Below, piece by piece: positions 11,043-58,115 of a DNA stretch of 63,406 nucleotides. The stretch is from a virus (taxonomy: Duplodnaviria; Caudoviricetes): positions 1 to 63,406 of the IMG/VR virus record IMGVR_UViG_3300027777_001479, one strand, 5' to 3'. The notes under the pieces were generated by a model, which did no database searches, was not told the DNA's origin, and saw only the letters and a program-made list of their open reading frames with translations. The first letter of the stretch is position 1, and the number at the start of each line of letters is the position of its first letter. A program made the position numbers and the translations under genes.

Positions 11043-13995
11043 CTACCCAAGTATTATCAGGATTAAAATAAATAACACCATTTGTTGAATTAACACAATA
11101 TCCAACAATTCTAACAACGTTTCCTGTTGATGATGGTGCAATGTTTGTGATATATCCCAATGTTGTATCAACATATAAAATATCACCAATAGCAAAAGTT
11201 GTCCACAAACTATTTCTAACATATCCTCTAACGAGCATTCCATCGCCAGGAGATGAACCTAAAGCAATTGATAACATTCCTATAGATTTTGGTGTTCCTG
11301 ATGCATCTGTTTGGTTCCATGTTGCACCAGCATCTAAGAAACATAGATCACCCGCAGTTAAAGTACCTGAACCAAAAGTTACAATATCACCATATCCTTC
11401 AACCGATGTTGAAGTTAACTCAGTTGTTGGGTCGTGATAAAAAGAAAATCTTCCACCTGAAGTGTATATTGCATAATTTTGTGAAGCTCCGCTGGCAGAA
11501 GATCGTAAACCTATATTTGATTGAGCATCTCCAATAACATTTATATCTAAACCTTTTTTATTTGTACTTGTAAAACTACCACCACCTAAAACATCAATCA
11601 AAACACCTGTTTGAGAATCACCACCATTCGTGTCGGCATTAGTGTTAAGTACTTGCATACCAACACTATTTCCTGTTGTCCCATTAATAAAGGCTTCGTA
11701 ACCTATGTTAAAAATAGTTGCATCTGAAACCGTGACAGAGTAACCTATATTTTGTTGTGATTGATTTTGGACTTCAAAGTTAGAACCATATTTTATACCT
11801 AAACCATTGGTCATAGAACCTTTAACAGACCCTTTTATACCATACTGAAGGGATCCAGATCCTGTGGAATTATTCGATACGTCTATACCCGTATTATTTC
11901 CATCATCAGTTCCTCCTGCAGCAATTTTAATACCTGTGTTTGAACTTGAAGCTCCATTAACAATAATTTCCGCACCATATAATTTAGTATTACCTGTTGG
12001 CGTTCCAGAGTTATGGATAAATAAAGAAGAGTGTTGTGGAAAATTATGTTGTGAAAATATATTCAATGAAGGAATAGTTCCTATTGTGTCATAGATATCG
12101 GTACGGCCAGTTATGTTTAGTAATGTACCATCAAAAGTCATATTACTTTCTGCAACTATTCCACCTGAACCATCAGAAGTTAAAACCTGATTATTCAAAC
12201 CTGGAACAATTACCGAACTTCCACTAGTTCCATCTGTTCCGCTCGTTCCGTTTACACCTGATAATCCACTTGTCCCGCTAGTCCCATCTGTACCACTAGT
12301 TCCATCAGTACCTGAAGTCCCATCTGTACCACTAGTTCCATCAGTACCTGAAGTCCCATCTGTACCACTAGTTCCATCAGTACCTGAAGTTCCGTCAGTT
12401 CCGCTAGTACCATCTGTACCATTAGTCCCTGAAGATCCGTCTGTTCCGCTAGTACCATCTGTACCTGAAGTTCCATTAGTCCCACTAGTACCGTTACTAC
12501 CTGAAGTTCCATTCGTACCTGAAGATCCGTCTGTTCCGCTAGTTCCATTCGTACCTGATGTACCATTTACCCCCGATAAACCACTTGTCCCACTTGTGCC
12601 GTCTGTTCCATTAGTACCGTCTGTTCCACTCGTCCCATCTGTACCATTAGTTCCACTCGTCCCATCTGTACCATTAGTTCCACTCGTCCCATCTGTACCA
12701 TTAGTTCCACTCGTCCCATCTGTACCATTAGTTCCACTCGTCCCGTTTGTACCTGAAGTTCCGCTAGTTCCATTTGTTCCATTAGTTCCTGACGTTCCTG
12801 ATGTTCCTGATGCGGCAATTATTGATACAAATATATTATGATTGTTCGCAAATTGTGGATTACCACCAGCACTTACCAAAGATACGGGAATAGTCCAATA
12901 ATTAGATGCCCCAACAATTAGTGTGGGGGTTCCTGTAATAGTCCATACTTGAAAATTAGCACTATCATTTTGGTCTTGAATTGTAATCTGTTGTCCTATT
13001 TGTAAAAGAGCTAAAAATATATCAATATCTGTTACTGGTGTATCTGTTAAATGGTTGATGTTAATTTGGGTTGATGCGGTCATTACTACATTATCCCACA
13101 ATACATGCCCAGCGCCAGGGTTTCCTGATTGTGAATTATTTTTTGCTTCATAATAGAATAAACTTGTTGATACTCCATTAGCTCCATTAGTCCCCGATGT
13201 TCCGTTCGTTCCCGATGTTCCGTTAGTTCCTGACGCAGCAAGTAAAGTCCAATATACACCAATAAAACCACCAAAAGGTCCATAACCAGATGGGGCGTAT
13301 TGAATACAATACCAAGTTTCTCCCGCAAAAGTCACGACATCACCTATATTATGTATCTGCACTTGATAAGGTCCTAAAAAGTTCCATAAAGGAGATGTCC
13401 CCGATGTCCCACTTGAACCTGAAGACCCACTTGTTCCGTTTGTTCCTGATGTGCCATTAGTCCCCGATGTTCCGTTCGTTCCCGATGTTCCGTTAGTTCC
13501 TGACGTTCCGTTTGTTCCATTAGTTCCTGACGTTCCGTTTGTACCTGAAGTCCCATTTGTACCTGAAGTCCCATTTGTACCTGAAGTCCCATTTGTTCCC
13601 GAAGTTCCATTAGATCCCGAAGTTCCATTACTACCACTTGTGCCGTTTGTTCCTGAAGACCCTGAAGACCCACTACTACCTGAAGTTCCACTTGTTCCAT
13701 TAGATCCCGAAGTTCCATTACTACCACTTGTCCCATTAGCACCCGAAGTACCGCTTGTTCCTGTTGCCCCACTTAACCCGCTTGTTCCGCTTGAACCATT
13801 AGTTCCACTAGTTCCTGAAGTTCCAGCAGGTCCTGTTGAACCGCTTAAAATTGCTTGTAAATCACTTAAAGGAGCATAATAGGATGATCCTTGTGGGCTT
13901 TGTGATGTGTCTCCTGTTACAACAACATGGAAAATATCATTTAATGTGACCGCAGAAACTCTCGATCTATCTGTTAATCTGTTATAAACTGGCAT
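11035..13995 (-). CDS. Fibre-like protein with two long Gly-X-Y (GTS/GTN/GTD) repeat blocks
   Basis: GTSGTNGTSG tracts at about 13400-13830 and 12220-12810; beta-rich middle; C-terminal GDILYV...G.VVRIVGYC domain. Confidence 0.75.
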   Translation of the reverse strand: MPVYNRLTDRSRVSAVTLNDIFHVVVTGDTSQSPQGSSYYAPLSDLQAILSGSTGPAGTSGTSGTNGSSGTSGLSGATGTSGTSGANGTSGSNGTSGSNGTSGTSGSSGSSGSSGTNGTSGSNGTSGSNGTSGTNGTSGTNGTSGTNGTSGTNGTSGTNGTNGTSGTNGTSGTNGTSGTNGTSGTNGTSGSSGSSGTSGTSPLWNFLGPYQVQIHNIGDVVTFAGETWYCIQYAPSGYGPFGGFIGVYWTLLAASGTNGTSGTNGTSGTNGANGVSTSLFYYEAKNNSQSGNPGAGHVLWDNVVMTASTQININHLTDTPVTDIDIFLALLQIGQQITIQDQNDSANFQVWTITGTPTLIVGASNYWTIPVSLVSAGGNPQFANNHNIFVSIIAASGTSGTSGTNGTNGTSGTSGTNGTSGTNGTDGTSGTNGTDGTSGTNGTDGTSGTNGTDGTSGTDGTNGTDGTSGTSGLSGVNGTSGTNGTSGTDGSSGTNGTSGSNGTSGTNGTSGTDGTSGTDGSSGTNGTDGTSGTDGTSGTDGTSGTDGTSGTDGTSGTDGTSGTDGTSGTDGTSGTSGLSGVNGTSGTDGTSGSSVIVPGLNNQVLTSDGSGGIVAESNMTFDGTLLNITGRTDIYDTIGTIPSLNIFSQHNFPQHSSLFIHNSGTPTGNTKLYGAEIIVNGASSSNTGIKIAAGGTDDGNNTGIDVSNNSTGSGSLQYGIKGSVKGSMTNGLGIKYGSNFEVQNQSQQNIGYSVTVSDATIFNIGYEAFINGTTGNSVGMQVLNTNADTNGGDSQTGVLIDVLGGGSFTSTNKKGLDINVIGDAQSNIGLRSSASGASQNYAIYTSGGRFSFYHDPTTELTSTSVEGYGDIVTFGSGTLTAGDLCFLDAGATWNQTDASGTPKSIGMLSIALGSSPGDGMLVRGYVRNSLWTTFAIGDILYVDTTLGYITNIAPSSTGNVVRIVGYCVNSTNGVIYFNPDNTWVEI

Positions 13996-14085
13996 CTTAT
14001 AGTATAAATATTTCCGTTAGTTAAAATAAAATTAAATAACACTAATAAATATGAACTCAAATCCATTTTAATCTATTTATAGAAT

Positions 14086-15909: not shown

Positions 15910-18657
15910 TTAAGCGTAAACACCGTAAGCAGTTACTTTACCACCAATAGCTGGAGTATAAGTAAACTGTACGTTAACACCACCAGAGATAGTGTAGTCT
16001 TCACCCATTTCTTGTAACAATCCATTGTAATAGATTGCCTCAGAACCAGTCTTAACTGTAGCACCCAATGTGAAGTTTTTGTTTGTTCCGTTAACTAAAC
16101 CAGAAATAGATACTTTCTTAAAGTAAGTGTTGCTGATTATGTTTTTAACAGCATCCAATTCAGTAACTACTTCAGAGAATGAATCAATTGCAGTTAAATC
16201 TGTATTTGATAACAAGTTAGCAACTTCAGAAGACAATGCGGCCTCTAATGAACCTTCAGCACCTTGAGCTCTACTTGTCTCGTCATTAATCTTAGTATTC
16301 AACATTAAAACCGCTTCATTAATTGCAGTATTCAATGAAGTGTCAGCATTTTCTCTGTTAGTGATTTCAGTGTTGATTTTTGTATTCAACATTCCTTCAG
16401 CACCTTCAGCTCTTGCTTGTTCAGCATCAACGTCAGCAGTTCTATCAGAGATTTCGTTGTTGATTTTGTCATTCAATTGTACAAACAATGACGTGTCAGC
16501 AGATTGTCTGTTAGAAATTTCAGTAGACATTGCTGTGTTAGCGTCAGTTCTGTTTGTTGCAATTACAGATTCTAATGAATTATCTTTAGAAACTCTTGAA
16601 CTTTCTTCGCTACCAATTGCAGTACCGATTGAAGTTACAGCAGATAACAATGCGTTATCGTTTTCTAAGTCAATTCCGTTAACGAAAGAAACGATTTCAG
16701 CAAATTGGTCTAAATCAACTGTAGAACCATCAAGGATAGCGTCAATTCTTCCTTCTTCTCTTGCGATTGCGTTCTCTAAAGAAACATTACCAGATACTCT
16801 TGAAGAAGCTTCAGCAGTCATTACTGTGTTGATAGAAGTTTTAGCTTCTGAAATTACAGACTCTAATGAATCATCTTTAGATACTCTTGAAGAAGCTTCA
16901 GAAGAAATTGCAGAAGATAATTTAGAGTCAATTGAATTTTCTCTTACTACAGTCATTGATTCTTTTGTTGAAACTGTAGTTTCAATTGAACCAAATCCTC
17001 TTGAAATTTCACCTGACAATACAACATCAACAGATGTGTGGATTGAACAACACTCAGAAATTTCAGCAGACAATCTATTGTCAGCAGCTTCACGAGACGA
17101 TGCTTCCGCATTTATTGAAGTTTCTAATGAAAAGTCACCATCTACGTGATGAGAGTGTTCTGTAGATATTGCAGAAATAATATACAAACTTAAAGTTTCT
17201 TCCACCGTATTGATGTGAAATTCATTAAAATCTGTTTTACTTGATACAGCATCTAAGGTGCTTTGCATCGATGCATCAAACAATTCTCTTACAAATCCCT
17301 CTACTGAAATATCATTTCTTAATGATTCCTCAACAGACATTGCTCTTACTTCTTCAGCATCAACATCAGCAGTTCTGTTAACGATTTCAGAAGATAAGTT
17401 AGAAGAAATAGTTGATTCAGCAACCATCGCTCTTGATTCTTCAGCGTTAACGTCAGCGATTCTGTTTACGATTTCAGTTGACAAGTTAGAAGCGATTGAA
17501 CCTTCAGCTGCGATTGCTCTTGATTCTTCAGAGTTAACATCAGAGATTCTATTTGCAATTTCAGAAGTCAAGTTAGAAGCGATTGACAATTCAGCGGCAG
17601 TTGCTCTTGCAACCTCAGTTGAAACTTCAGCAACTCTGTTAGCAATTTCCAAAGAAATTTCTTCAGATAAATCAGCCTCAACAGATTCTGCTCTTGCTTC
17701 TTCAGCATCAACATCTAATCCTCTGTTTACGATTTCAGAAGACAAATCATTAGCAATAGAAGATTCAACAGACATTGCTCTAGCTTTTTCTGTAGATACC
17801 GCAACAGACGCTGTAGATGCCAATGTAGTGATTGTGTTGTTAAGGTCACCATCAACAGATTGGAAAGCAGAAACGATTTCAGTTAATGAATCTAACGCAG
17901 CAGGGTCAGTGTTAGAAATAACAAAATCAATTTTTGTGTTTAATGACAAATCACCAGCAACACGTGCAGACGCTTCAGAAGTGATAGAAGTAGATAATGA
18001 ACCTTCAGCTGCGATAGCTCTTGATTCTTCAGCGTTAACATCAGCGATTCTTGCATTTGTCTCAGCAGTTAAATCATTCGCCAATGAAACTTCAGAAGAC
18101 ATTGCACGAGATCCTTCAGCATTTAAAGAAGTTTCTAATGATAAATCACCAGCAACTCTTGAAGATGCTTCAGCAGTAACAGCGTTTGTTCTGTTAACAA
18201 CTTCAGAAGACAAGTTAGAAGCGATTGAACCTTCAGCAGCGATAGCTCTTGATTCTTCAGCGTCTACATCAGCAGTTCTGTTAACGATTTCAGTTGACAA
18301 GTTAGAAGCCAAAGAAGCGTGTTCAACAACATTGAAAGAATGTTCTGTAGAAATTTCTTGAGAAATAACTAAAGCCAATGAATTGTCGTTAGCCAATCTT
18401 GTAGAAGCTTCAGATGAAACAGCGTTTGTTCTGTTAACAACTTCAGAAGACAAGTTAGATGCGACAGAATTGTCACCAGCAACTCTTGCAGTTGCCTCAT
18501 TTGAAATGTTAGTTGATAAATTACCTAATTCCGCATTAACGTTTGATGTTGAACCAAACTTAATGTCACTTGCGATAATACCAACTGGGGTTGTGATTGA
18601 TGGACTTGATAATATTAAGTCCGATTGTAAGTCTAAAACTATTTTAGTAGTAGCCAT
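15910..18657 (-). CDS. Long Ser/Ala/Glu-rich coiled-coil fibre protein (likely start MATTK at 18657)
   Basis: Repeats such as SEIVNRTADVDAEESRAIAAEGSI; three LDS/Q-x-x-EIV-type necks; C-terminal IYYNGLLQ...DYTISG domain; strongly biased codons. Confidence 0.75.
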   Translation of the reverse strand: MATTKIVLDLQSDLILSSPSITTPVGIIASDIKFGSTSNVNAELGNLSTNISNEATARVAGDNSVASNLSSEVVNRTNAVSSEASTRLANDNSLALVISQEISTEHSFNVVEHASLASNLSTEIVNRTADVDAEESRAIAAEGSIASNLSSEVVNRTNAVTAEASSRVAGDLSLETSLNAEGSRAMSSEVSLANDLTAETNARIADVNAEESRAIAAEGSLSTSITSEASARVAGDLSLNTKIDFVISNTDPAALDSLTEIVSAFQSVDGDLNNTITTLASTASVAVSTEKARAMSVESSIANDLSSEIVNRGLDVDAEEARAESVEADLSEEISLEIANRVAEVSTEVARATAAELSIASNLTSEIANRISDVNSEESRAIAAEGSIASNLSTEIVNRIADVNAEESRAMVAESTISSNLSSEIVNRTADVDAEEVRAMSVEESLRNDISVEGFVRELFDASMQSTLDAVSSKTDFNEFHINTVEETLSLYIISAISTEHSHHVDGDFSLETSINAEASSREAADNRLSAEISECCSIHTSVDVVLSGEISRGFGSIETTVSTKESMTVVRENSIDSKLSSAISSEASSRVSKDDSLESVISEAKTSINTVMTAEASSRVSGNVSLENAIAREEGRIDAILDGSTVDLDQFAEIVSFVNGIDLENDNALLSAVTSIGTAIGSEESSRVSKDNSLESVIATNRTDANTAMSTEISNRQSADTSLFVQLNDKINNEISDRTADVDAEQARAEGAEGMLNTKINTEITNRENADTSLNTAINEAVLMLNTKINDETSRAQGAEGSLEAALSSEVANLLSNTDLTAIDSFSEVVTELDAVKNIISNTYFKKVSISGLVNGTNKNFTLGATVKTGSEAIYYNGLLQEMGEDYTISGGVNVQFTYTPAIGGKVTAYGVYA

Positions 18658-25818: not shown

Positions 25819-26424
25819 ATGAATTCAGAAGCAGAACTACTACAAAAACTCATGGTTTCAAAAAAAATCATGGATAAACATAATGAAATTGGAAGAGGTC
25901 AAGTAAGAGAAATGTCATCCCCTGTTGTAGAAGGATATGACGCAGTTCCTGCAACTTACAATATCCCACAAGAGTTTATGGCAGAACAACCAAAACCAAT
26001 TGTGAATCAAAACTCAAACATTCCTATTGAAGATAGGATTTCAAAATCAAAACTTCCCGATGAGATAAAAAGATTAATGATGGAACACCCAATTCAACAA
26101 CCAACAATGGGAGTTGGGTCAGGAGCTGTTTTAAGCAATGAGTTAGTCGAAAAAGCATCAAGATTGATGAATACAAACGCTAAAGGCGATATTATCGGAG
26201 AACAAAAACAAGTAAGACAACCACAACAACAAACACAACAATCGATGGTTGGTTTATCAGCAAACGAAATCAAACAAATTGTTAGAGAAACAATGGAAGA
26301 TGTATTGTCTGAAAATGGTTTATTGATTGAATCAGAAACAAAAAGTTCCGAAATGTTCAAATTCAGAGTAGGTCAACATCTATTTGAAGGTAAAGTCTTG
26401 AAAGTTAAAAAAATGACAAAATAA
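25819..26424 (+). CDS. Hypothetical protein
   Basis: ORF followed by a terminator. Confidence 0.55.
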   Translation: MNSEAELLQKLMVSKKIMDKHNEIGRGQVREMSSPVVEGYDAVPATYNIPQEFMAEQPKPIVNQNSNIPIEDRISKSKLPDEIKRLMMEHPIQQPTMGVGSGAVLSNELVEKASRLMNTNAKGDIIGEQKQVRQPQQQTQQSMVGLSANEIKQIVRETMEDVLSENGLLIESETKSSEMFKFRVGQHLFEGKVLKVKKMTK

Positions 26425-26442: not shown

Positions 26443-26471
26443 AAACCTCCATTTAAAGTGGGGGTTTTTTT
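26443..26471 (+). terminator. Intrinsic terminator
   Basis: AAACCTCCAT-TTAAA-GTGGGGGTTT followed by a T run. Confidence 0.75.
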
Positions 26472-26507
26472 GTGTCTTTATGATTTTATTTTTATCAAAA
26501 AACAAGA

Positions 26508-26536
26508 TTGACTTAATAAGAGAAAAAGGTTATAAT
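26508..26536 (+). promoter_or_regulatory. sigma70-type promoter TTGACT-N17-TATAAT heading the 26.6-47.7 kb operon
   Basis: Near-consensus hexamers with exact 17-nt spacing, directly after a terminator. Confidence 0.6.
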
Positions 26537-26603
26537 TTAGAGATAGTGTGGGAATCTGATTTAAAAAAAGACCACACATTAATTAATAAACTAATAAAAA
26601 AAT

Positions 26604-27848
26604 ATGACACAAAATAGCCCCATGAACGGTCGTGAGAGAATCAGAGTATTGGTTCTCCCAAGTGATCGATCTGGGGTTGGCTGAGGTAAATTTCGATCAG
26701 TCGACCCCCACATCAAATTACAAAACTTATACTCCGAAGATTTTCATGTTGATATAGATTATGAACCAAAAATTAACGATATAAATTATTGGAAAAAATA
26801 CCAAATAGTTCATTTTCACAGAAGTTTTGGCCAAATTGAGCAATGTCCAAACATCATTAATAGTTTAAAAAGTTTGGGAATTGTTATGATTGCCGACATC
26901 GATGATTATTGGTTACCAACAAAAGAGCACCCAATTCATCAATTAATTATTGAAAACAAACTCCACCAAAAGATTGTTGATAATCTAAAGGCAGCGAGTT
27001 ATGTTACAACAACCACAGAATTATTTGCAAATGAAATTAGAAAGTTCAATAAAAATGTAATTGTTTTACCAAATGCGATTGATCCAAGTGAACCACAATT
27101 TACACAACCAACACCACCATCAGATAAAATCAGAGTTGGATGGTTGGGAGGATCTTCACATTTACACGATTTGAAATTATTAGATGGTATGGTTTCAAAA
27201 CTTAATCCTGTTCAAGACAAATTACAATATTATGTTTGTGGGTTTGATATTCGTGGAAGTGTAACAGAAATCAACAAAGAAACGGGTGAACAAAAACAAA
27301 GACCAATTAAACCTGAAGAAACCGTTTGGGTAAGATATGAAGAAATATTTACAAATAATTATAAAATCATTTCACCCGAATACAAAACGTTCTTAGATAA
27401 ATTCCAAGAAGGAGATTATCCGGCAATTCAGAATGAGAACTATGTTAGAGTTTGGACAAGACCTGTTGATCAGTACGCAAGAAATTATTCAAACTTTGAC
27501 ATTTCGTTGGCACCAATTAAAAATCATATTTTTAATAGAATGAAATCACAATTGAAAGTTATTGAAGCAGGATTTTATAAAAAGGCTTTGATTGCTTCAA
27601 ATGTTGGACCATATACAATCGACTTGAAACATGCTTTAGATAAGGGTCAATTTACAAATGGAAATGCTTTGTTGGTAAATGAAAATAATAATCATAGTGA
27701 TTGGGCTAAAAACATCAAAAAATTGGTTGACAATCCAAATATGATTACCGATCTTGGTGAGAGACTTTATGAAACGGTGAAAGACAGATATGATCTTAAT
27801 AAGGTTACGGCCGATCGCGCATCTTTTTACAAATCTTTAATTAAATAA
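26604..27848 (+). CDS. GT-B (GT4-like) glycosyltransferase with a single in-frame TGA at codon 27 (recoded or pseudogene)
   Basis: ATG 26604 is in frame with ORF 26874..27848: ...RIRVLVLPSDRSGVG*GKFRSVDPH...; downstream DIDDYW, RVGWLGGSSH..DL, FN..KSQLKVIEAG. Confidence 0.75.
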
Positions 27849-27851
27849 TAT

Positions 27852-28577
27852 ATGATTAACATTCCAATAACAAAAATTTTATTTTTAGATATTGAAACCG
27901 TTGGTGGTTGCAAAGATTATCAAACGTGTATTAATTCTAATCCAATAGTTGCCGATCAATTTGATAAGTATTTTGATTGGTTTTTGAAAAGATTTCCCGA
28001 AGATAAAGAATGGGAGAAAGATAGATCGACAGAAGAACATATGGATATTGTTTTTAGAAAAAGAGCGGCACTTGTTCCTGAATTTGCTAAAATCATATGT
28101 GTTTCTATGGCATTTGTTTTGGATAACGGTGAGATTAAAAAACAAACATTTTCAGGTGATGATGAAAAACAACTTCTAGTAGATGTAAGAAACTTATTGG
28201 ATCGTTGTCATAAATTAGATTTTTATCTATGTGGTCATAATCTTAAAAACTTTGACATTCCCATGTTGGCAAAACGAATGATTATTAATGAAATTATGCC
28301 ATCAAAGATTCTTCCTTCATATGATACAAAGCCTTGGGAAGTAAAAGCAATTGACACAAAAGAAATTTGGCAATATGGAGCATATACCGCAATTGGGTCA
28401 TTAGATCTGATGTGCGCTTGTTTGGATATTCCAACACCAAAAGATGGTGAAATAAATGGGGGTATGGTACACGAAGCGTATTGGAATCACAATAGAATAG
28501 ATGAAATTTCAAAATATTGTGAGAAAGATGTTGATGTGTTGGTTACGGCAATAAAAAAATTAAAAAGTTTAAAATAA
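27852..28577 (+). CDS. PolB-like 3'-5' exonuclease (DEDD)
   Basis: LFLDIETV, GHNLKNFDIP, YCEKDV. Confidence 0.8.
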   Translation: MINIPITKILFLDIETVGGCKDYQTCINSNPIVADQFDKYFDWFLKRFPEDKEWEKDRSTEEHMDIVFRKRAALVPEFAKIICVSMAFVLDNGEIKKQTFSGDDEKQLLVDVRNLLDRCHKLDFYLCGHNLKNFDIPMLAKRMIINEIMPSKILPSYDTKPWEVKAIDTKEIWQYGAYTAIGSLDLMCACLDIPTPKDGEINGGMVHEAYWNHNRIDEISKYCEKDVDVLVTAIKKLKSLK

Positions 28578-29176
28578 TGAGTGAAATTGACGATAATATA
28601 AATGACGAAGAATTGGAGGATTTATTAAAAATCTTGGATGACATTTCAAATGACGACATTGATTATAATCTTATAATGGATTCTTTTGGATTGGACGTTA
28701 AAGAATTGGAACAAGATTTAGAAGATTATGTTCCACAAATTGATTTGTCGTTTAAAAAATCAAAAGTTGATGCAACAACTCCTTCTTATGTATACCAATC
28801 AGATTCTGGTTTTGATTTATATTCAACAGAAGAAGTTTGGATTCATGGGTTTGATCGAAAATTAATATCGACAGGATTACATTTTGATATTCCTGATGGT
28901 TACGAAATACAAGTAAGATCAAAAAGTGGTTTGGCGTTAAAACAAGGTTTAATGGTATTAAACTCACCTGGCACGGTAGATCAAGGATATTTGGGTGAAA
29001 TAAAAGTAATTTTGTTCAACACAACAAAAGAAAAAGTTAAAATAGAAAAAGGTCAAAAAATTGCTCAAGCAGTTCTTTGTCCAGTAGTTTCAGGAAAATG
29101 GGTTAATTTAGTCGAGAAAGAAGATTTAGAATCCAAAGATAGAAACGATAATGGATTTGGATCTACTGGTTTATGA
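28577..29176 (+). CDS. dut: dUTPase (trimeric) with acidic N-terminal extension
   Basis: SGFDL, RSKSGLA, NSPGTVDQGYLGEIKV, KIAQAV, R...GFGSTG. Confidence 0.92.
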   Translation: MSEIDDNINDEELEDLLKILDDISNDDIDYNLIMDSFGLDVKELEQDLEDYVPQIDLSFKKSKVDATTPSYVYQSDSGFDLYSTEEVWIHGFDRKLISTGLHFDIPDGYEIQVRSKSGLALKQGLMVLNSPGTVDQGYLGEIKVILFNTTKEKVKIEKGQKIAQAVLCPVVSGKWVNLVEKEDLESKDRNDNGFGSTGL

Positions 29177-55910: not shown

Positions 55911-56120
55911 ATGGAAGAAGAAAATAAAAATTTTGGCAATTTATTCAACACAATAGAGTTACTAAATGAAGACCATTTAGAGTTAATTTTAACCACAATG
56001 GATAACGAACACTCTCTATACTATTTAATTGAAGCCGTTAAATCCGCACATAGAAAAGGAGCTTTTTCTATTGGAGAAACCGAAGTGATTTCAAAATCAA
56101 TTAGAACTTTATTAAAGTAA
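55911..56120 (+). CDS. Small hypothetical protein
   Basis: 69-aa ORF filling the gap once 55876 is taken as the neighbour's start. Confidence 0.55.
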   Translation: MEEENKNFGNLFNTIELLNEDHLELILTTMDNEHSLYYLIEAVKSAHRKGAFSIGETEVISKSIRTLLK

Positions 56121-56151
56121 ACCAAAAAATCAACTATTAAAATTAATATAT

Positions 56152-56179
56152 AAAAAAAGGGACAATTTCTTGTCCCTTT
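56152..56179 (-). terminator. Intrinsic terminator after the major capsid gene
   Basis: Minus strand AAAGGGACAA-GAAA-TTGTCCC-T7. Confidence 0.85.
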
Positions 56180-56201
56180 AATGTTATTTTTAAGATTTTG
56201 A

Positions 56202-58115
56202 TTATCTCAATTCTCTTAAGTCGAATGTTCTAACACCATCTACGGTAATTCTTCCGTAAAATCTGTTGTTCACCATCTTCTTCGCGTATCTGGTCATAAT
56301 ACCTTTGATTGGCGTGAAGTTGAATGGGTTATACATTGTAGGTGTCAATTGTAGAGGTACATACGGTGCGTAGATGTAACCTGTGTCTAACAATGATGTT
56401 CCTTTGTGTCCAATCAAAACTTGGTTTGCTGGGAAGTAAGGATCACGATAAACTTGGTAACGTCCAGACAATGTACCAACTCTTTCAATACCCATGTTGT
56501 ATTGGTCTTGATCAGGAGCCGCGTTAGATACGTGGAAGTATTCTAAATCGTCAAAGATAGCAGAAACCTCAGAAGAAACAACGATCCAGTTAGCACCACC
56601 TCTCAAAGTAGATTTGTGGATTTGTGCTGACAATTGGTTAATTGCTGTAATCAAAGTTTGGTTCCAGTCTTTTTGAGTGTAAGATGTAGTAGCGTTAATT
56701 CTTCTCCATCCGTTGTAGTCCCAACGTAATTGCCATGCTGCACCTTTACGTAGGTCACGTAAGATCTCACGGTCAATTTCAGCAGCAACTTGTTCTGACA
56801 ACAACGCTGTCAATTCAGCTTCAGCATCGATGTTATGGAATGCAGCAACGTCTTGTGCTAATTCAGGAGACCATTGTGCTCTTAGTTTTCTTTCTGTAAC
56901 AGATACAGTTACTGACTCAAGGTCAAAAGAAACCTCACCAATTTGATCTTCAAATTCCATTTCAGCATATCTTCTATACCAAGCCAAGAATGAACCACCA
57001 GAAGTACCTGAATAGATAGTAGTTCCTGTGTAACCATCTAATGATGTTGCGTCACAATCAGCACATACTGGACAAGATAAATCTACTTCAAGATAGATAC
57101 ATCCGTCTTGAGAACAAATATTGTTGTAGTTACCACCATCACCAGTATTAGTACCAGTTGCATTACCACTGTTTCCAAATACAGTTGACGTGTTAGTACT
57201 TGTAGGTGTAACAATTCCTTGTCCGTAAATTTGAGTTACAACTCTAAACAATAGAGGAACAAATACAGTTTGACCGTTATAAGTACTTGTAAACACATTA
57301 CAAGGTGTAGTTGCTGCAGAAATTACTGAAGTTCCATAGATTCTTAAATCAGAAAGGAAAGATTCAGTATCCATTTCATTTCCATCAGGACCAATAAGTT
57401 TTCCTGTACCAGCGTTAGCAAAACCACAAAGTTTCATAATAACTTTTCTTGTGTTACCAGAGTAAGTATCTAATGAGGTATTAACAAGTGAAGAACCTGC
57501 CCATGCTTGAACAGTAGTGTTTGCTGTAACAGCAGTCCACTTACCTTTAGAGTAATCAAACAATCCTGGAGGATCTAAAGAAGCTTCATTTCCTTCATAG
57601 AACAAGTCATACAAGTCTTTTTTGTAAGGATAGTTAGGTGCAGTTCCACCTGGATAACCTGAGTTAACGTCAGTTGGTCCGTTAGGTGATCCTATTGGTG
57701 CGTAGTGTTGACCACCAGCAGTTCCAACTCCTGTTTGAGGATATGCGTTTGCCAATTCAGAAGATGCGTTTGAATATCCTTGTATTCTTGGTACAAAGAA
57801 GAACAATTTACCGATAGGTAAGTTCATTGCTTGTACAGATACGATGTCGTTAGCCAACAATTTAGAGAATACACGTCTTACGATTGGGAAAACAACTGTT
57901 TCAAATGCTCCGTTAGAAGAACCATCTGAAGTTGCTTCGTTAATCAAGAAAGATGCTTGGTTCTCATATAATTGAGCTACGTTTTCTTTTAGGTGGCCTT
58001 TAAGACCTTCAAGGAACCCTAATTTGTCCCATTTGTTAATTGTGTCTTCTTTGATAACTTTAAGGTGTTTTAACCCGATGTTACCTACAAGACCTGATTC
58101 TAATAATGCTCCCAT
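56202..58115 (-). CDS. gp23: Major capsid protein (T4 gp23-like) with a large insertion
   Basis: FPIVRRVF..LLANDIVSVQAM..P.G; RKLRAQWSPELAQD..AFH.IDAEAEL...LSE....EIDREI; YAPYVPLQ; GIMTRYA. Confidence 0.93.
   Translation of the reverse strand: MGALLESGLVGNIGLKHLKVIKEDTINKWDKLGFLEGLKGHLKENVAQLYENQASFLINEATSDGSSNGAFETVVFPIVRRVFSKLLANDIVSVQAMNLPIGKLFFFVPRIQGYSNASSELANAYPQTGVGTAGGQHYAPIGSPNGPTDVNSGYPGGTAPNYPYKKDLYDLFYEGNEASLDPPGLFDYSKGKWTAVTANTTVQAWAGSSLVNTSLDTYSGNTRKVIMKLCGFANAGTGKLIGPDGNEMDTESFLSDLRIYGTSVISAATTPCNVFTSTYNGQTVFVPLLFRVVTQIYGQGIVTPTSTNTSTVFGNSGNATGTNTGDGGNYNNICSQDGCIYLEVDLSCPVCADCDATSLDGYTGTTIYSGTSGGSFLAWYRRYAEMEFEDQIGEVSFDLESVTVSVTERKLRAQWSPELAQDVAAFHNIDAEAELTALLSEQVAAEIDREILRDLRKGAAWQLRWDYNGWRRINATTSYTQKDWNQTLITAINQLSAQIHKSTLRGGANWIVVSSEVSAIFDDLEYFHVSNAAPDQDQYNMGIERVGTLSGRYQVYRDPYFPANQVLIGHKGTSLLDTGYIYAPYVPLQLTPTMYNPFNFTPIKGIMTRYAKKMVNNRFYGRITVDGVRTFDLRELR

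Follow-up and report, generated by a model that had tools for sequence, protein, structure and literature searches.

We document here a glycosyltransferase gene of an uncultured tailed phage that is interrupted by an in-frame stop codon, TGA at 26682–26684, over which the translating ribosome probably hops. The gene lies in the window, by which we mean the whole stretch of viral DNA analysed (63,406 nucleotides (nt), Duplodnaviria; Caudoviricetes; IMG/VR record IMGVR_UViG_3300027777_001479), a 63-kb contig of ~30% G+C with a CheckV completeness of 22% and with relatives of up to 272–308 kb. Comparison with related alleles makes it very probable that a programmed hop over a stop operates in this gene family, and probable that the same happens at the TGA of the window allele, whereas the site of the interruption is almost certainly the 3′ end of a mobile homing-endonuclease cassette. 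The gene and the cassette features described below are on the plus strand.

From ATG 26604 the frame reads MTQNSPMNGRERIRVLVLPSDRSGVG, the TGA and GKFRSVDPH, and then stays open to a stop at 27846–27848; a previous reading of the window made from its sequence alone (hereafter, the sequence-only reading) had described this arrangement correctly in both coordinates and sequence. As defined by translation, the first part of the open reading frame (ORF; 26604–26681) comprises an N-terminal extension, MTQNSPMNG (26604–26630), followed by RERIRVLVLPSDRSGVG, in which the usual 5′ end of the gene is present in recoded form. Its last codon is the putative take-off codon, GGC (Gly, 26679–26681), a position occupied by GGC or GGT across all the Gly-type interrupted alleles and by AGC in the Ser-type ones. 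The TGA constitutes the entire coding gap of 3 nt, and the putative landing codon GGT (Gly, 26685–26687), whose first two bases match those of the take-off codon, opens the second part of the ORF (26685–27848, 387 codons plus stop), which matches the glycosyltransferase family PHROG 7162 with an E value of 2.2e-48. The ORF called from 26874 is truncated, as had been noted, since TTG 26874 is the first in-frame start past the TGA and the call loses the first strand and helix of the fold. According to the mechanism that we propose, when GGC occupies the P site and TGA the A site, peptidyl-tRNA-Gly would release GGC and re-pair with GGT 6 nt downstream, and translation would resume at AAA 26688. 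The product would be a full-length GT-B glycosyltransferase reading ...SGVGKFRS..., with the same loop as its uninterrupted homologs.

Homologs without the two extra codons do exist, as the sequence-only reading had expected. Uninterrupted ORFs of 404 residues, up to 99% identical, read SGV-GKFRS, a sequence present in 11 of the 12 aligned homologs (84–100% identical), the twelfth (P0011) reading GW. These uninterrupted genes lack just a Gly codon and the stop, so that their sequence is the exact product expected from the hop. The downstream protein retrieved 80 viral loci, of which 11 are interrupted at the same site, ten of them with GG[CT]-TGA-GGT and one with GGT-TAACCAACA-GGT. A pattern placed in the N-terminal extension, and hence blind to the insert, recovered 34 metagenome contigs, 33 of which were interrupted (32 by TGA and one by TAA) and one was devoid of the insert; none had a sense codon. 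Likewise, a pattern permitting TGA, TGG, TAA or TAG gave 18 glycosyltransferase matches, every one with TGA. Matches of the pattern scans that proved unrelated after translation were dropped (L175, 176, 178, 180, 182, 183, 185, 187, 189, 191, 193, 194, 197, 198 and 200). Further alleles came from searches in which the query was the upstream gene or a more distant glycosyltransferase; the latter yielded 79 loci, of which 36 (32 distinct), picked to span the identity classes, were inspected, and 7 of these are interrupted. Altogether, the interruption is present in 48 distinct sequence contexts belonging to 13 types, and in four further types, and contigs from three other DNA runs of other studies (X7, X12 and X9) cover the site unchanged. 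The stop is therefore not private to this genome but is found at one and the same position in many diverged contigs, and the GGN-stop-GGN arrangement is kept by independent phages, both in viral loci and in metagenome contigs.

The gap differs among alleles in length and sequence. It measures 2 nt in L162 (TA, with the stop TAG overlapping the landing codon), 3 nt in the window type and the GGT-TAA-GGN subtypes (TGA or TAA), 5 nt in L211, L227 and L254 (TGACA, TGAAA and TAAAT), 6 nt in L161 (TGACTA), 7 nt in L262 (TGAATTA), 8 nt in L141 and L186 (TAAATCAA and TAACCAAA) and 9 nt in L080, together with L184 and L188, and in L140 (that of the GGT-flanked viral locus mentioned above, and TAACAAAAC). 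Gaps of 2, 5, 7 and 8 nt change the frame, and in the seven contigs that carry them the extension and ...VLVLPSDRxGV[GS] can still be read upstream as far as the stop, with downstream ORFs of 389–773 codons (393 in L162) intact in another frame. Hence readthrough cannot explain those contigs. The take-off and landing codons share their first two bases in each of the 13 interrupted types as well as in the four additional ones, and the codon 3′ of the take-off codon is in every type a stop, TGA, TAA or TAG, a rule that holds for the 48 distinct contexts; L112 and the GGT-TAA-GGN subtypes carry TAA here, and L162 carries TAG. Moreover, the codon pair follows the local residue, being GGY...GGN where relatives read GV-G-K/Y, and AGC...AGC or AGC...AGT in a Ser clade whose uninterrupted members read GV-S-YFRS (relatives GV-S-Y/F). 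A single rule reproduces the uninterrupted homolog in all cases, namely that the peptidyl-tRNA detaches from the codon preceding the stop and pairs again with the matching codon past the gap. The 6-nt hop from GGC to GGT giving GVGKFR, as put forward in the sequence-only reading, gains strong support from these comparisons, namely the homologs devoid of the two codons, the GGN-stop-GGN kept and the frame-changing gaps, and it is by homology with the frame-changing relatives that we assign it to the window allele. We also observed that, in a more distant clade (L161/L210, L211, L217 and L281), the interrupted glycosyltransferase ORFs reach 770–788 codons, about twice the usual length, owing to an extra C-terminal part. 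The scans brought up as well an unrelated conserved sequence of ~26 nt in 7–8 viral contigs (L175, L176, L178, L180, L182, L187 and L189, with a variant in L185), located outside glycosyltransferase genes and with stops all around.

One alternative, which we consider unlikely, is decoding of the stop by a near-cognate or suppressor tRNA, which would result in a product with two additional residues (SGVG-X-GKFRS). With a 3-nt gap, the window allele, and this allele alone, would keep its frame by readthrough as well; TGA is reportedly the leakiest bacterial stop; and seven protein records (P0011–P0016 and P0019) read W at the stop, GVGWGKFRS. Since no TGG was seen at the stop position in any DNA examined, these records are probably gene calls made on short contigs with genetic code 4, an annotation artefact that hides recoding sites. 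Readthrough could not bridge the frame-changing gaps of the seven related contigs, nor does it accommodate the TAA and TAG codons found at the same place. If a two-residue insertion were tolerated, a sense codon would be expected in some of the 48 interrupted contexts, and none has one; the extra residues never occur in the sequence of the aligned homologs, and no tRNA gene was found in the window.

The existence of the insert is explained by the cassette to which it belongs. In its complete form, this cassette consists of an endonuclease gene (helix-turn-helix (HTH), NUMOD3 and PD-(D/E)XK-like nuclease), an N-terminal extension of 9–12 residues, the recoded first ~17 codons of the glycosyltransferase gene and the gap. 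In full-length relatives, the ORF upstream encodes 304–351 residues, among which we recognised an HTH, a CxxC pair resembling a zinc ribbon, NUMOD3 and, towards the C-terminus, the nuclease motif D...E-x-x-G-D-Y-W-H. NUMOD3 scored above the Pfam cut-off of 20.4 bits in 5/5 tested relatives (27–39 bits), the match to REase_MTES_1575 was weak (14.8–24.6 bits, below the cut-off of 38.2), and Pfam found no HNH domain in the full-length upstream ORFs. In these relatives, sequence features point to a free-standing NUMOD3/PD-(D/E)XK-like homing endonuclease gene, which, in cassette carriers, has its stop overlapping the start of the glycosyltransferase ORF in a different frame. No intact copy was found in the window, where deletion has left only the last ~40 codons of the gene. 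The remnant (26495–26617, ~40 residues plus stop) overlaps the glycosyltransferase start out of frame with its last 14 nt and is 70% identical to the L010 ORF; positions 26495–26614 match the profile of the full-length upstream ORFs (alignment A3) with an E value of 1.4e-18, covering profile positions 270–309 of 309, all that is left of the gene.

Further evidence of mobility comes from alleles devoid of the cassette. The cassette remnant as a whole extends from 26472 to 26696 and is absent or replaced in these alleles. In the pairwise alignment with the stop-less L003, homology spans the upstream gene and its terminator to ~26475, is lost or weak at 26476–26696, where the segment of the first ORF part is only ~60% alike, and exceeds 90% from 26697 onwards; two forms coexist in run X7, one with the cassette and the other with 26471 linked to 26695 by 108 other letters. 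Stop-less alleles begin with MKEKI or MSKIN, without the N-terminal extension. All the interrupted alleles with enough context (29/29) have either the endonuclease ORF (21) or a remnant of it (8), versus 4/50 uninterrupted ones, and interrupted alleles are scattered among the uninterrupted in a tree of the downstream part. One metagenome contig (L120; protein P0116) combines the N-terminal extension of the cassette with the resident uninterrupted Gly-loop sequence and no gap, as expected for a recombinant arising from a shorter conversion tract. By analogy with mobA/gene 60 of T4, the insert would split the target of the endonuclease within a very conserved coding stretch, thus making carriers immune to cutting, and the hop would render it harmless to the protein. 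A terminator-like hairpin with a T-run (AAACCTCC...GGGGGTTTTTTT, 26443–26475) marks where the cassette begins on its left side; it follows the upstream ORF of 201 amino acids (25819–26424) and is also present in the cassette-less L003.

A nonsense insert brought in by a homing cassette could simply kill the glycosyltransferase, the frame appearing open only by virtue of recent invasions, a scenario to which we grant little probability. The interleaving of interrupted and uninterrupted alleles, some of them nearly identical downstream (L114/L004, L115/L023 and the window/L003), would fit recent transfers, and a preprint on the MobA element discusses that element as possibly mildly parasitic (Manning and Atkins 2022). 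However, the frame stays open over 381–384 codons in each of the 30 distinct interrupted coding sequences, including the 8 with a decayed endonuclease gene of which only a remnant is left. In terminal branches of 18 triplets, hand-picked from the tree and several with outgroups in common, interrupted lineages accumulated 532 synonymous and 185 nonsynonymous changes (0.35), compared to 579 and 191 (0.33) in their uninterrupted sisters, with 30 synonymous and 4 nonsynonymous changes in the window's own terminal branch. Relaxed selection downstream of the stop, a possibility raised by the sequence-only reading, was therefore not found in the terminal-branch counts. These counts replaced the pairwise dN/dS values (median 0.128 in 432 interrupted pairs and 0.120 in 1320 uninterrupted pairs), which are weak evidence because they mostly reflect shared history before transfer. 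In addition, the 17 codons upstream of the gap retain the residues of the homologs through synonymous change, including switches of serine codons from AGT to TCN, and a dead gene would offer no reason for matched codons flanking every gap, nor for the switch from Gly to Ser at both of them.

Selenocysteine insertion or a reassigned TGA (code 4 or 25) is highly improbable. A hairpin does stand beside the TGA, yet the stop lies within its 5′ arm and not ahead of it, as opposed to what selenocysteine insertion would lead one to expect, and neither possibility is compatible with the TAA and TAG variants or with the frame-changing gaps. That TGA acts as an ordinary stop elsewhere, as the sequence-only reading had stated, is borne out by the 10 other window ORFs that it ends; among the 57 window ORFs, stops are TAA in 40, TGA in 11 (the interrupting one included) and TAG in 6. 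Taken together with the lack of tRNA genes in the window and the TAA and TAG variants, this led us to discard code 4 or 25 and a suppressor tRNA as candidates. A sequencing or assembly error, or a private point mutation, has a negligible probability in view of the 48 distinct contexts and the unchanged site in three other DNA runs. Overall, readthrough, selenocysteine, point mutation and sequencing error, all listed as alternatives in the sequence-only reading, are contradicted by the TAA and TAG stops, the frame-shifting gaps and the dozens of contigs.

The RNA around the take-off site contains a conserved, covarying structure, a three-tier 5′ stem-loop at 26618–26676, composed of an outer stem (CCCCA/TGGGG), a middle stem and an inner hairpin (26636–26657). 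Only 2 nt separate its 3′ arm from the take-off codon, and the outer stem joins CCCC+N in the extension to N′+GGGG just before GTT-GGC. On 30 distinct sequences, 94.9% of its 23 pairs are formed, with compensatory changes at 4 pairs (26 cells) and a covariation score reached by 0/500 shuffles. The fifth pair of the outer stem (26622/26672) is AU in 13 sequences, UG in 11, CG in 4 and GC in 2, and never unpaired. According to per-sequence duplex folding, other subtypes rebuild the 5′ duplex with different sequences, for example CAACGCCC/GGGCGTTG, CTCCGG/CCGGAG and CTCACCCCAGTTC/GAACTGGGGTGAG. RNAalifold gave nearly no consensus (−0.44 kcal/mol) on a mixed alignment of 44 sequences (A4) because MAFFT put the 5′ arms of the subtypes in different registers, and the 5′ stem was therefore tested on an ungapped subtype alignment of 30 sequences as well as by folding each duplex separately. 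The N-terminal extension always accompanies the gap, and its conserved Pro codon constitutes the 5′ arm of the RNA stem, so the roles of peptide and RNA are inseparable.

The hairpin emphasized by the sequence-only reading is a different one, with a 12-bp stem (26673–26684/26697–26708) and a 12-nt loop. It does exist in the minimum free energy fold of 26600–26730 (−38.1 kcal/mol, z −3.35, with 2/200 shuffles as stable), but its covariation, proposed in that reading as a check, was not significant: 97% of its pairs are formed in 31 distinct sequences, 6 of the 12 (the lower six) are invariant, a single pair shows compensatory changes, and 45/500 shuffles reached its score. Besides, its 3′ CCCC is replaced in other subtypes. 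The alternative helix proposed at the same time, TGATCGA (26663–26669) with TCGATCA (26693–26699), is present in the window, but it is not conserved, the codons that hold its 5′ half being different in most of the other 30 aligned sequences (alignment A2). GGGG 26673–26676 is common to the 5′ stem-loop and the 12-bp hairpin, which makes them mutually exclusive. By analogy with the 5′ stem-loop of gene 60, refolding of the conserved 5′ stem-loop behind the ribosome probably drives or biases forward movement, although any role of the two RNA structures in the hop is at this stage a matter of conjecture.

Several points weigh against a programmed hop, apart from the W-bearing records and the frame-keeping gap of the window allele mentioned above. 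A ribosome at the take-off codon encloses one arm of each RNA structure (the 3′ arm for the 5′ stem-loop, the 5′ arm for the 12-bp hairpin), so that neither could be folded at that moment. The landing codon is GGA after a GGC or GGT take-off in L122, L144 and L149, implying a wobble-base mismatch with tRNA-Gly(GCC). Work by Weiss et al. in 1987 reportedly found unstimulated hops over a stop to be inefficient in E. coli, and stimulators of the E. coli type, such as Shine-Dalgarno (SD)-like elements, may not apply here because the window genes lack SD motifs. If all the invasions were very recent, the selection seen in terminal branches could predate the arrival of the cassette. A clade sister to this endonuclease (40–51% identical; L152–L160, L163–L166, L169, L170 and L172) occupies the same place upstream of the glycosyltransferase with neither extension nor gap, which indicates that the gap is not obligatory for carrying such an endonuclease gene. 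Finally, the only contigs retrieved from RNA libraries, two of run X19, lie at 26715–27000; they start past the stop and do not amount to proof of transcription.

The gene product is predicted to be a GT4-like glycosyltransferase of GT-B fold. An AlphaFold2 model of a stop-less homolog 99% identical (predicted local distance difference test 83.2, predicted template modelling score 0.82) shows two Rossmann-like domains, with strand beta1 at residues 5–10, helix alpha1 starting at G16 and the hop site, G18, in the first turn of this helix. The best Foldseek matches were enzymes of GT4 type and included MshA (3c48, E 3.6e-12), GlgM, PimB′, BshA and PimA, all with probability 1.00, while a sequence search of the PDB gave 0 matches and Pfam Glyco_trans_1_4 scored 23.1 bits, below its cut-off of 27. 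Among 25 homologs, G16, V17 and R21 are invariant and G18 and K19 nearly so, which fits selection against extra residues in this loop.

The sequence-only reading regarded the interrupted gene as the first of a glycan operon, a position that does not agree with its neighbourhood. In the region downstream (27852–29176 and 29318–55159), a PolB-exonuclease-like gene and a dUTPase gene come first, followed by a long run of same-strand ORFs including GT2 and GT4 glycosyltransferases. Since the first two genes intervene, the interrupted gene is not contiguous with the glycan genes, and the idea that the stop throttles a glycan operon by polarity remains speculation. Elsewhere in the window, islands of higher G+C (0.36–0.43 versus ~0.30) occur within long ORFs at 12001–14000, 16001–18000 and 56001–58000.

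As regards the host, 56 of the 57 window ORF starts lack an SD-like motif, and their leaders are A/T-rich, with a TATTTAT-like motif preceding several of them, which suggests a host with SD-independent initiation, e.g. one of the Bacteroidota. In line with this, we set aside as doubtful two SD-like stimulators, a GGGG located 2 nt before the take-off codon, as in prfB, and a GAGGT formed by the TGA and GGT. A scan of bacterial and archaeal genomes gave 6 matches in metagenome-assembled genomes of unrelated labels (Aquiluna, Flavobacteriaceae, Bacilli, Emticicia, an archaeon and one unnamed), so no host can be named, the Emticicia and Flavobacteriaceae matches being weak hints only. The closest phage record, that of an uncultured 735-kb phage, is 33.6% identical.

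A natural point of comparison is gene 60 of T4, whose bypass was reportedly described by Huang in 1988; its gap is said, as Manning and Atkins summarise work by Bonocora in 2011, to confer immunity to cleavage. Both systems share a Gly take-off codon, an adjacent stop, a matched landing codon, a product (predicted in our case) equal to the uninterrupted homolog, a 5′ stem-loop before the take-off site and a patchy distribution among close relatives. The MobA/gene 60 element is described as an endonuclease ORF overlapping an N-terminal extension, with a diverged copy of the replaced segment and a bypass, its insert ending at or just after the landing codon (Manning and Atkins 2022, 10.1101/2022.08.31.505936). 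The cassette reported here likewise has the putative bypass at the 3′ end of an element that combines an endonuclease gene, an N-terminal extension overlapping it in a different frame and a divergent version of the stretch that was replaced; its insert also ends at or just past the landing codon, and decay of the endonuclease gene is frequent in alleles that retain the bypass. The differences are nonetheless considerable. The target is a GT-B glycosyltransferase instead of a topoisomerase (large-subunit gene), and the endonuclease is of the NUMOD3 and PD-(D/E)XK-like kind, in contrast to the HNH enzyme MobA. The target gene is not split in two but remains intact, with the element at its 5′ end and no C-terminal extension; the upstream nascent peptide is only ~26 residues long; and no SD-like landing aid is evident, in phage genes themselves without SD motifs. 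The gap is 2–9 nt (3 nt in the window), compared to 50 nt in T4 and to 20 nt for the shortest one given in the preprint. Judged by its sequence, the window cassette would accordingly be an analogue, and not a member, of the T4 gene 60/MobA family.

The move itself resembles the short hops over a stop or slow codon that Weiss in 1987, O'Connor in 1989 and Kane in 1992 are said to have observed in E. coli reporters and over-expressed genes, reportedly including +5 and +6 displacements of peptidyl-tRNA between matched codons across a stop, independently of frame. Those hops were reportedly low-level, unprogrammed and observed in artificial contexts, unlike the interruptions analysed here, conserved in natural genes under selection and accompanied by conserved flanking RNA structure. 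In mitochondria of Magnusiomyces capitatus, many mobile-looking inserts known as byps are reportedly bypassed between matched codons, a feature shared with our alleles. They reportedly differ in being mitochondrial, GC-rich, 27–55 nt long and without a link to homing endonucleases. In the terminase gene of Streptomyces phage Hau3, a candidate bypass has a 10-nt gap, and the junction peptide was shown in E. coli (Antonov et al. 2023, PMC10732093). The Hau3 case is akin to ours in the short gap in a phage gene, the slow codon in the A site and the flanking stem-loop, but it is triggered by a rare UUA codon and not a stop, is proposed to be a sensor of host state, and is described with no mention of a homing endonuclease. 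In the literature searched, bypassing was restricted to topoisomerase genes with MobA, Magnusiomyces mitochondria and the Hau3 terminase; we found no bypassing in a glycosyltransferase and no endonuclease-linked gaps of 2–9 nt in this search, which did not extend to the supplementary cassette tables of Manning and Atkins, possibly containing related cases.

On balance, we lean towards considering this system a second case, evolved independently, in which a homing endonuclease became associated with programmed translational bypassing, represented by a natural allelic series of ultrashort gaps (2, 3, 5, 6, 7, 8 and 9 nt; Gly/Gly and Ser/Ser) in a large family of glycosyltransferase genes of uncultured freshwater jumbo phages with an SD-less host, and with a refolding 5′ stem-loop as main driver. 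If so, bypass would have evolved convergently as an immunity device for homing elements, with another endonuclease family, another target gene and a far shorter gap, and hiding an immunity insert by hopping would be a general strategy of selfish DNA and not a T4 oddity. The consequences would reach annotation as well. The interrupted gene is split by gene callers, shortened to start at TTG 26874 or, on short contigs, given a W in place of the stop (seven records), and many in-frame stops and frameshifts of phage metagenomes, now called pseudogenes or mistranslated with W, may be hop sites. The rules of take-off and landing could be tested on dozens of natural alleles that differ in gap length, codon pair, type of stop and stem sequence, and such short gaps are easy to build into reporters.

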